From the IMG/VR virus record IMGVR_UViG_2718218135_000001, positions 32,001-96,000 of that record: 64,000 nucleotides of DNA. One strand, written 5' to 3'. The notes beneath the pieces are model-generated. The model searched no databases. It was not told where the DNA came from and was given only the letters and a program-made list of their open reading frames with translations. Positions 59,235 to 59,388 of this stretch are shown one piece after another; the first letter of the stretch is position 1; every line of letters begins with the position of its first letter. The translations under genes were made by a program, and so were the position numbers. Source of the DNA: a virus (Duplodnaviria > Heunggongvirae > Uroviricota > Caudoviricetes).

Positions 59235-59309
59235 GATGGTGTAGCTCAGTGGTAGAGCGGTTGACTGTTAATCAACTGGTCGGTGGTTCGAGTCCACCCA
59301 CCATCGCCA
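59235..59309 (+). tRNA. tRNA-Asn (anticodon GTT)
   Basis: cloverleaf folded by hand: 7-bp acceptor, 4-bp D-stem, 5-bp anticodon stem with loop ctGTTaa, 5-bp T-stem with TTCGAGT loop, encoded CCA. Confidence 0.85.
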
Positions 59310-59313
59310 ACAT

Positions 59314-59388
59314 AGCGCTGAACGGTTTGGATTCGCCACCACCGTCCGAACGAAAGACTCCGCAAATGTCGCCAGACCGTTCAGCGCT
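59314..59388. repeat. 13-bp perfect inverted repeat with 49-bp spacer just after the tRNA
   Basis: agcgctgaacggt ... accgttcagcgct. Confidence 0.75.

Follow-up and report, generated by a model that had tools for sequence, protein, structure and literature searches.

Here, we characterize the tRNA locus of a 64,000-nucleotide stretch (hereafter, the window; all coordinates refer to it unless stated otherwise) of a virus of the class Caudoviricetes, positions 32,001 to 96,000 of the record IMGVR_UViG_2718218135_000001. Our analysis revealed that the tRNA-Asn gene of this locus is followed by a previously unannotated trailer of ~175-180 nt (59310-59485), which opens with a long hairpin, denoted I3, and closes at an intrinsic terminator. 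Judged by its pattern of conservation and predicted fold, the trailer appears to be a conserved, structured RNA unit and is best classed among the structured spacers or trailers of tRNA operons. On balance, and with modest confidence, we consider it probable that the hairpin and the trailer act at the RNA level, as an element for processing, insulation or stability of the tRNA transcript.

The first-pass annotation of the locus, made from the DNA letters and their open reading frames (ORFs), had pointed to a 13-bp inverted repeat at 59314-59388, directly downstream of the tRNA, as a possible processing or structured-RNA element. The repeat was recovered at exactly this span, with a perfect core formed by AGCGCTGAACGGT (59314-59326) and ACCGTTCAGCGCT (59376-59388), and its stem could be refined to 20 bp. 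I3 begins 2 nt past the CCA of the tRNA, and its 20-nt arms are 90% complementary at the DNA level, both apparent mismatches being U.G wobbles on the plus strand; in other words, all 20 positions can pair (including the 2 G.U pairs), which amounts to about two helical turns on the strand of the tRNA. The predicted RNA fold of the corresponding 95-nt stretch has a free energy of -38.9 kcal/mol, compared with -21.3 +/- 3.2 kcal/mol for 200 dinucleotide shuffles (z -5.5), none of which folded as well. In the 64-kb window as a whole, I3 ranks among the approximately six best inverted repeats, and two of the other five lie no more than 600 nt upstream of it. I3 was also considered as an intrinsic terminator in its own right and rejected in this role: its loop is 41 nt long, the T run at 59409-59414 sits 17 nt past the stem and is lacking in the relatives, which carry GTTCTTAACC, and the actual terminator is found at the end of the trailer (Table 1).

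Comparative analysis of the three hairpins of the locus, namely, I3 and the two upstream hairpins I1 and I2, was performed on alignments of 13 distinct relatives of the trailer (A3) and of the relatives of I1 (A1) and I2 (A2). A caveat to the strand comparison is that the structures were predicted on the plus strand; for this reason, the count also includes 1x1 internal positions left unpaired by the predictor. In the A3 consensus fold, all 20 pairs of I3 are kept; two pairs are changed on both sides (C-G to U-A and A-U to G-C), and one conserved pair is U.G. The cells of the I3 stem are paired in 97.7% of cases, as opposed to 21-56% when the partner is slid, and none of the 500 column shuffles reaches either the observed covariation score or the observed percentage of paired cells. 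The upstream hairpins behave similarly, with stems that are nearly invariant across clades of 76-90% overall identity and loops that diverge strongly. The stem of I2 (A2) comprises 19 pairs, 3 of which show changes on both sides, and each one-sided change yields G.U on the plus strand; that of I1 (A1) includes 7 columns with G.U on the plus strand and a single A-U/G-C/A.C column. When the three stems are taken together, non-Watson-Crick cells are G.U on the plus strand in 13 columns (66 cells) versus A.C in 2 columns (10 cells). Because G.U thus greatly exceeds A.C, the best reading of the hairpins is as RNA transcribed from the strand of the tRNA; conversely, a DNA cruciform or an RNA of the other strand is disfavoured, given that neither would show such a bias. 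Collectively, covariation and the G.U versus A.C asymmetry support I3 as a conserved structured element on the strand of the tRNA, in line with the structured-RNA part of the original suggestion, whereas its role in processing is what we infer below. Within the I3 loop, sequence and length vary among clades, with the exception of the invariant part, AAGACUCCGC (see also Table 1).

The trailer is cleanly delimited. Similarity among the relatives stops right past the terminator, and the sequences further downstream are mutually unrelated. Plasmids of the pHCM2-like group and those of Enterobacter and Citrobacter match window positions 59002-59487 at ~92% identity. The trailer is found in 633 plasmids of PLSDB, always as one copy each; most of these plasmids are ~100-120 kb in size, 613 are classified as non-mobilizable, and their hosts belong to Klebsiella (244), Escherichia (222), Enterobacter (86), Salmonella (45), Citrobacter (22) and Cronobacter (9). 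Among 5426 complete Escherichia coli genomes, 244 (4.5%) carry the trailer, invariably on a plasmid and in 0 chromosomal places. A scan of viral contigs for the pattern AGACTCCGC N15-45 TGTGAYA yielded ~31 true loci after filtering; on genome contigs, the matches listed for the same pattern are chance ones, in unrelated phyla. The terminator combined with ACGGCAGACG makes a pattern suited to finding distant homologues of the trailer.

What precedes the trailer differs between groups. In the clade of the window it is tRNA-Asn, Klebsiella and a second E. coli clade have tRNA-Ser(tga) there, and some Salmonella plasmids have a further hairpin instead. Where it follows a tRNA, the trailer occupies the position that defines a 3' external transcribed spacer (3'ETS), that is, between the last tRNA and the terminator of the operon. 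In the E. coli genome and plasmid records examined, no annotated feature covers it. Searches against Rfam 15 at the gathering score returned nothing for the hairpin or the trailer, and relaxing the threshold to E<=10 over 58450-59560 recovered only the tRNA, besides chance-level hits. The same relaxed search over the P1-type array, related to this locus as described below, found no hairpin family; matches to YrlA and mascRNA-like models were far below threshold and either fell on real tRNAs or were at chance level. In the literature searched, we found no description of the hairpins or the trailer.

The tRNA gene itself is a known member of the tRNA set of SSU5 and P1 phage-plasmids and is not new: it is already annotated in plasmid pCUVET18-789.1 and in phage SSU5. 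The canonical cloverleaf noted at first pass is borne out by the ARAGORN call and by a full-length match to the Rfam tRNA model (76.2 bits against a gathering score of 29; E 6e-15; model positions 1-71 of 71), a score well away from that of a pseudogene. The CCA is encoded at 59307-59309, and the acceptor end reads ...CACCAUC-G-CCA. Anticodon GUU and G73 are known identity elements of the E. coli asparaginyl-tRNA synthetase, and both are present, along with U33 and A37, in the anticodon loop CUGUUAA. The impression that the gene does not resemble the enterobacterial chromosomal tRNA-Asn proved accurate. The tRNA is identical to asnT of E. coli K-12 at only 52 of 76 positions; the anticodon loop, G73 and CCA are shared, and all the stems differ, including the acceptor, anticodon and T stems. 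By contrast, 69 of 76 positions (91%) are identical to the P1-type tRNA-Asn (trnA of P1), and the identity to the tRNAs of SSU5 and pHCM2-like plasmids is 100%. No chromosomal match to the tRNA was found among the 5426 complete E. coli genomes. Thus, given the low identity to asnT, the lack of chromosomal matches and the membership in a phage-plasmid set, the gene is no host tRNA used as a prophage att site, the case that had been named as fatal to a phage origin, and it can be attributed to the SSU5/pHCM2 phage-plasmid group. A tRNA-Asn has been reported for the SSU5-like plasmids pECOH89 and AnCo3, together with tRNA-Thr in pECOH89 (PMC3999498, PMC5427195). A side observation concerns the tRNA-Arg(tct) of a P1-like plasmid (L011, 3502-3578), which has the acceptor stem and T arm of tRNA-Asn (GATGGTG...CACCATCGCCA) and a differing anticodon arm, as though a swap of this arm had given rise to a new isoacceptor.

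By its nucleotide matches and gene order, the window is an SSU5/pHCM2-type phage-plasmid of E. coli. Indeed, E. coli plasmid pCUVET18-789.1 matches the 221 bases that surround the tRNA at 100% identity, and ~20 further E. coli plasmids of ~100-115 kb do so at 99%, with no matches to chromosomes, and the 550 bases upstream of the tRNA match SSU5 at 91%. The window and SSU5 also share the order of genes: DNA ligase, small ORFs, the non-coding region, tRNA-Asn and a cobT-like gene. Both synteny and high nucleotide identity thus place the locus among the tRNA loci of SSU5/pHCM2-like elements.

I3 is not an isolated structure. I1, I2 and I3 share the same build and all lie within one non-coding stretch, the leader of which, upstream of the tRNA, is ~90% identical to SSU5 and pHCM2-like plasmids, contains no feature predicted by the Prokaryotic Genome Annotation Pipeline in the identical plasmid and matches no Rfam family at E<=10. 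The stem sequence of I2 resembles that of the second hairpin of the P1-type array (ACAACGTTGAGAACACTGG). We surveyed tRNA surroundings with ARAGORN in 29 sources, that is, the window region and 28 SSU5-like or P1-like loci, which together provided 46 distinct tRNA contexts. After each tRNA comes either the next tRNA, 2-5 nt away, or a long hairpin that starts 1-3 nt past the CCA. In the ungapped scan used here, stems measured 12-22 bp, and some of them started at +8 to +10 owing to a mismatch or bulge near the base. The exceptions to this rule are SSU5, in which the right arm is deleted, and a separately located P1-type tRNA with the anticodon CAT. The hairpin ends are common to the arrays (ACAC/ACAA... 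and ...GTTGTG/GCTGTG), and the loops of some related hairpins hold T-arm-like hairpins (GGGTTCGAATCCC, GAGTTCGACTCTC). The tRNA sets vary even among close relatives: Asn; Asn+Ser; Asn+Thr+Ser; Asn+Tyr+Thr; and Arg+Tyr+Thr+Ser. From this recurrence in position and design, I3 is classified as one of a family of long hairpins flanking tRNAs in SSU5-like and P1-like elements. The features of the locus and its surroundings are compiled in Table 1.

Table 1. Features of the tRNA-Asn locus and adjoining region, in window coordinates.
Feature	Position	Strand	Remarks
Non-coding leader	58492..59234	+	743 nt between coding sequence 58186-58491 and the tRNA; holds I1 and I2
Hairpin I1	58718..58802	+	23-nt arms, 39-nt loop
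Hairpin I2	58873..58988	+	20-nt arms, 76-nt loop; ends CAyAAC... / ...GTTGTG
tRNA-Asn (anticodon GTT), 75 nt	59235..59309	+	ARAGORN; Rfam RF00005; discriminator G73, encoded CCA
Hairpin I3	59311..59391	+	20-bp stem, arms 59311-59330 and 59372-59391, 41-nt loop
Invariant loop motif AAGACTCCGC	59354..59363	+	ten columns identical in 13/13 distinct trailers (A3)
Trailer tail (GATAGAC..ACGGCAGACGTT.TTAACCAT..AACACTTTTTTCAGCGCAAAA)	59392..59462	+	87-95% identical across clades
Intrinsic terminator AAAGGGGC-TTCG-GCCCCTTTTT	59463..59485	+	invariant 8-bp helix, 13/13 sequences
Variable cargo slot, start	59488..60378	+	context only, outside the RNA element
Backbone module	60379..62335	.	context; adjoins cobT
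Tyrosine recombinase (367 aa)	60379-61482	+	Pfam Phage_integrase 6.5e-09
132-aa ORF	61477-61875	-	relatives annotated as helix-turn-helix regulator
70-aa ORF (orf70)	62123-62335	+	beside cobT

We observe the tRNA, the hairpin, the conservation and the strand of the hairpin, and its constant placement behind the last tRNA in each run; the scenario that we favour builds on these as follows. The locus would be a tRNA operon of a phage-plasmid, with a functional phage-type tRNA-Asn(GUU) that may supplement or replace the host tRNA-Asn. The tRNA would be embedded in a ~1-kb non-coding region of a plus-strand transcript that contains three hairpins of 20-23 bp and is closed by the terminator. This region is presumably transcribed as one precursor, perhaps from the plus-strand genes upstream, because there is neither a terminator-like site nor a convincing promoter in between. 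In such a precursor, the I3 duplex next to the CCA could keep the flanking RNA from mispairing with the cloverleaf and could offer an endonuclease a defined entry, after which 3' exonucleases would trim the transcript to the CCA. Ribonuclease III (RNase III) would be the likeliest enzyme, given that the stem makes two helical turns; 20-23 bp is the size of a classical RNase III substrate, and I3, as modelled, offers the ~20 bp of RNA duplex that this enzyme calls for, on the strand that is transcribed. Precedents for processing hairpins exist in the RNase III sites of the T7 early region and in the precursors of the T4 tRNA cluster. The hairpins of the window resemble these in having ~20-bp stems between functional units of a transcript, one of them beside a tRNA. 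Unlike the T7 sites, the stems in the window are nearly perfect, without the typical internal loops, and the loop carries a conserved motif.

Several observations count against this scenario. The covariation in I3 rests on few independent events, with ~4 sequence variants of the stem, and the two double changes separate the Asn-linked from the Ser-linked trailers, so that they represent few independent substitutions. A C.A mismatch in three sequences would be G.U on the other strand. A scan for consensus promoters gave no more sites than shuffled sequence, and the candidate -10 element is not conserved in SSU5. The invariant 10-nt loop motif is needless for a hairpin that serves as an RNase III site or an insulator and hints at a sequence-specific partner. 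Finally, SSU5, an isolated and propagating phage, lacks the right arm and the terminator; hence, the hairpin is non-essential for lytic growth.

Why the phage-plasmid carries a tRNA-Asn is a question in its own right. Codon usage, which had been proposed at first pass as a check, gave a weak signal: in the 48 long ORFs of the window, Asn codons amount to 46.6 per 1000, only slightly above the frequency in E. coli. With Asn codons at so modest a frequency, the need for codon supply makes a weak case for carriage. An explanation compatible with the others is that the tRNA mainly counters tRNA-cleaving defence nucleases, such as AriB of the PARIS system; we regard this as possible, albeit on the unlikely side. 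Apart from the modest codon frequency, it is favoured by the tRNA repertoire, because precisely the pair Asn(GUU) and Thr(UGU) is found in P1 and in many SSU5-like plasmids, and T5 versions of tRNA-Lys, tRNA-Thr and tRNA-Asn rescue infection (PMC12409363). Furthermore, the AriB targets have U39, the position that is also changed by a resistance mutation in the T5 tRNA-Lys (PMC12409363), and the P1-type tRNA-Thr has G39 instead: the phage-plasmid tRNA-Thr(tgt) genes in L010 (3580-3655) and L007 (3583-3658) read U36-A-A-G39-C-A41. The similarity to the PARIS-neutralizing tRNAs of T5, namely, a phage-encoded tRNA-Asn(GUU) alongside tRNA-Thr(UGU) in the relatives, does not extend to the cleavage site. 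The tRNA-Asn of the window keeps the cleavable UAAUC|A context, reading U36-A-A-U-C|A41, identical to the site that AriB prefers in tRNA-Lys, and shows no T5-type resistance substitutions at positions 39 or 41; therefore, resistance is not indicated by the known determinants. Replenishment of the cleaved tRNA-Asn pool is a possible anti-PARIS route.

As for the trailer, one alternative is that it acts in trans, whole or as a released part, as a regulatory RNA derived from the tRNA 3'ETS, in which the loop AAGACUCCGC would serve as a seed or a protein-binding site, and the U-rich stretch with the terminator would form a chaperone-binding 3' end. We deem this rather unlikely. There is a precedent for a functional tRNA 3' spacer in 3'ETS-leuZ of E. 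coli, which likewise is a conserved RNA segment between the CCA of the last tRNA and an intrinsic terminator, and a regulatory role would fit the conservation pattern: ten bases of the loop stay the same throughout 13 distinct sequences, while the other loop bases and the loop length vary, the tail blocks and the terminator are conserved, and the unit is unchanged whichever tRNA, or none, precedes it. However, no site complementary to the loop motif rises above chance in the 64-kb window, the best other site having 1 mismatch, and there is no match to an Rfam family. Unlike 3'ETS-leuZ, with which it shares no sequence similarity, the segment in the window is borne by plasmids and phages only. 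A broader version of this idea, namely, that the hairpins of the window and those of the related SSU5-like and P1-like arrays belong together in a hitherto undescribed family of non-coding RNAs that are structured, possibly derived from tRNAs, and have a function of their own in trans, strikes us as unlikely. If it were true, such RNAs would act as decoys, sponges or regulators through loop motifs like AAGACUCCGC.

Conceivably, the hairpins could be decayed or selfish relics, such as former tRNA genes or repeats akin to miniature inverted-repeat transposable elements, without a function of their own. The T-arm-like hairpins in the loops of related P1-type and other arrays, the truncated tRNA-Ser remnants in some arrays (L009) and, in a by-eye reading, the resemblance of the I3 loop motif GACTCC to the 3' half of a T-loop are all compatible with such a descent. 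Nevertheless, relics appear very unlikely, considering that the stems are far better kept than the loops across clades of 76-90% identity, with compensatory and wobble-only changes, and that each replicon has one copy in a fixed position, without target-site duplications or dispersed copies.

Least probable of all are sites that function at the DNA level, be it a cassette boundary or recombination site (attC-like, or the core of a tyrosine recombinase) or hairpins for single-strand initiation or origins: even though the tRNA content varies between close relatives, the variable cargo slot starts directly past the trailer and a tyrosine recombinase is encoded 1 kb downstream, the G.U asymmetry (13 versus 2 columns) does not fit duplex or cruciform DNA, the recombinase is a generic Phage_integrase in a conserved backbone by cobT rather than in a mobile islet, the arms are 41 nt apart, unlike those of lox/dif/FRT-type cores, and the ends, compared by eye, misfit the attC R''/R' consensus (RYYYAAC/GTTRRRY). 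In particular, an integron attC site or a simple tyrosine-recombinase core was rejected in view of this spacing, the G.U bias and the lack of an IntI-type match, the integron-integrase models giving no match to the 367-aa recombinase.

The region downstream of the trailer consists of a variable and a conserved part. The terminator forms the left edge of a variable cargo slot, which in the window holds a 171-aa ORF (59564-60079) and in the relatives (L003-L012) holds unrelated genes, including phoH, grxA, a DNA invertase and hypothetical genes. In some SSU5-like elements, bla-TEM Tn3-like transposons have been described as inserted close to tRNA loci (preprint 10.1101/2025.09.12.675607). The module that follows is found next to cobT in divergent clades, with amino-acid identities of 85-91% for the recombinase (Int), 64-85% for the helix-turn-helix (HTH) protein and 50-64% for orf70.

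SSU5 lacks an equivalent of window positions 59349-62325 (2977 bp), and its homology to the window ends at 59348. A 7-bp repeat, CCGTCCG, is located at 59342-59348 and again at 62319-62325 and corresponds to the junction in SSU5 (L002, 4540-4560), which therefore looks like the product of a microhomology deletion between the two repeats. Through it, SSU5 would have lost the right hairpin arm together with the terminator and cargo slot, the genes for the tyrosine recombinase and the HTH-type protein, and orf70 except for its last few codons. SSU5 was called virulent in the AnCo3 genome announcement, and, speculatively, the loss of the module might be related to its lifestyle. The end of SSU5 homology at 59348 and the recombinase downstream had raised the suspicion that the tRNA is the att site of an inserted integrase islet; this reading was dropped, since Int-HTH-orf70 belongs to the backbone conserved across divergent clades and it is SSU5 that carries the deletion.

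Among previously known elements, SSU5, pHCM2, pECOH89 and AnCo3 carry the same tRNA-Asn gene in the same synteny, SSU5 differing in the lack of the right arm, terminator, recombinase, HTH gene and orf70. The announcements of pECOH89 and AnCo3 (PMC3999498, PMC5427195), like the preprint cited above, refer to tRNA genes and say nothing of the hairpins or the trailer. The trnA-trnT locus of P1 is alike in its tRNA-Asn (69/76 identical), and, in P1-type elements, the last tRNA is similarly followed within a few nucleotides by long hairpins of the ACAAC... / ...GTTGTG design. Conversely, P1 has no trailer with the AAGACTCCGC loop, and it differs in replicon and backbone (IncY; dmt ... ban context). 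In P1, the order is trnA (tRNA-Asn), trnT (tRNA-Thr) and then the annotated ORFs plp and upl. The P1-type plasmid L010 has, at 3655-4300, three long hairpins after tRNA-Thr, with T-arm-like loops (e.g., AGGGTTCGAATCCCT); by this comparison, plp and upl of P1 (NC_005856, ~69326-70107) may be mis-annotated structured RNA. L010 also contains, at 4234-4349, just upstream of tciA, a sub-threshold match to the small RNA STnc100 (43 bits against a gathering score of 47; E 9e-8).

Elsewhere in the window, a full-length Rfam match to IS009 (RF02111) was detected at 38957-39155 on the plus strand (189.6 bits against a gathering score of 117). It falls within a 193-aa ORF (38614-39195), and the 'RNA family' may really be a conserved coding segment. 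A tRNA-Lys(ttt) of 81 nt called by ARAGORN at 41887-41967 on the minus strand is probably a false positive; it gives no Rfam tRNA signal at E<=10 and lies antisense within an ORF (41899-42564). Two further strong inverted repeats are located at 13549-13618 (24-nt arms, 96%, 22-nt spacer) and 48220-48283 (26-nt arms, 81%, 12-nt spacer).

The element described here is very widespread and cleanly defined, and nothing about the trailer is surprising so far. The results point to a conserved and structured RNA unit, unannotated so far, that lies downstream of the tRNA genes in a very common group of phage-plasmids of enterobacteria. The overlap of the Asn(GUU)+Thr(UGU) pair with the target set of PARIS suggests a testable reason for the carriage of these tRNAs. 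Should the hairpins be processing sites, they would account for the release of tRNAs from long phage-plasmid transcripts; if, instead, they are RNAs with targets of their own, they would constitute a new class of phage-plasmid regulators.

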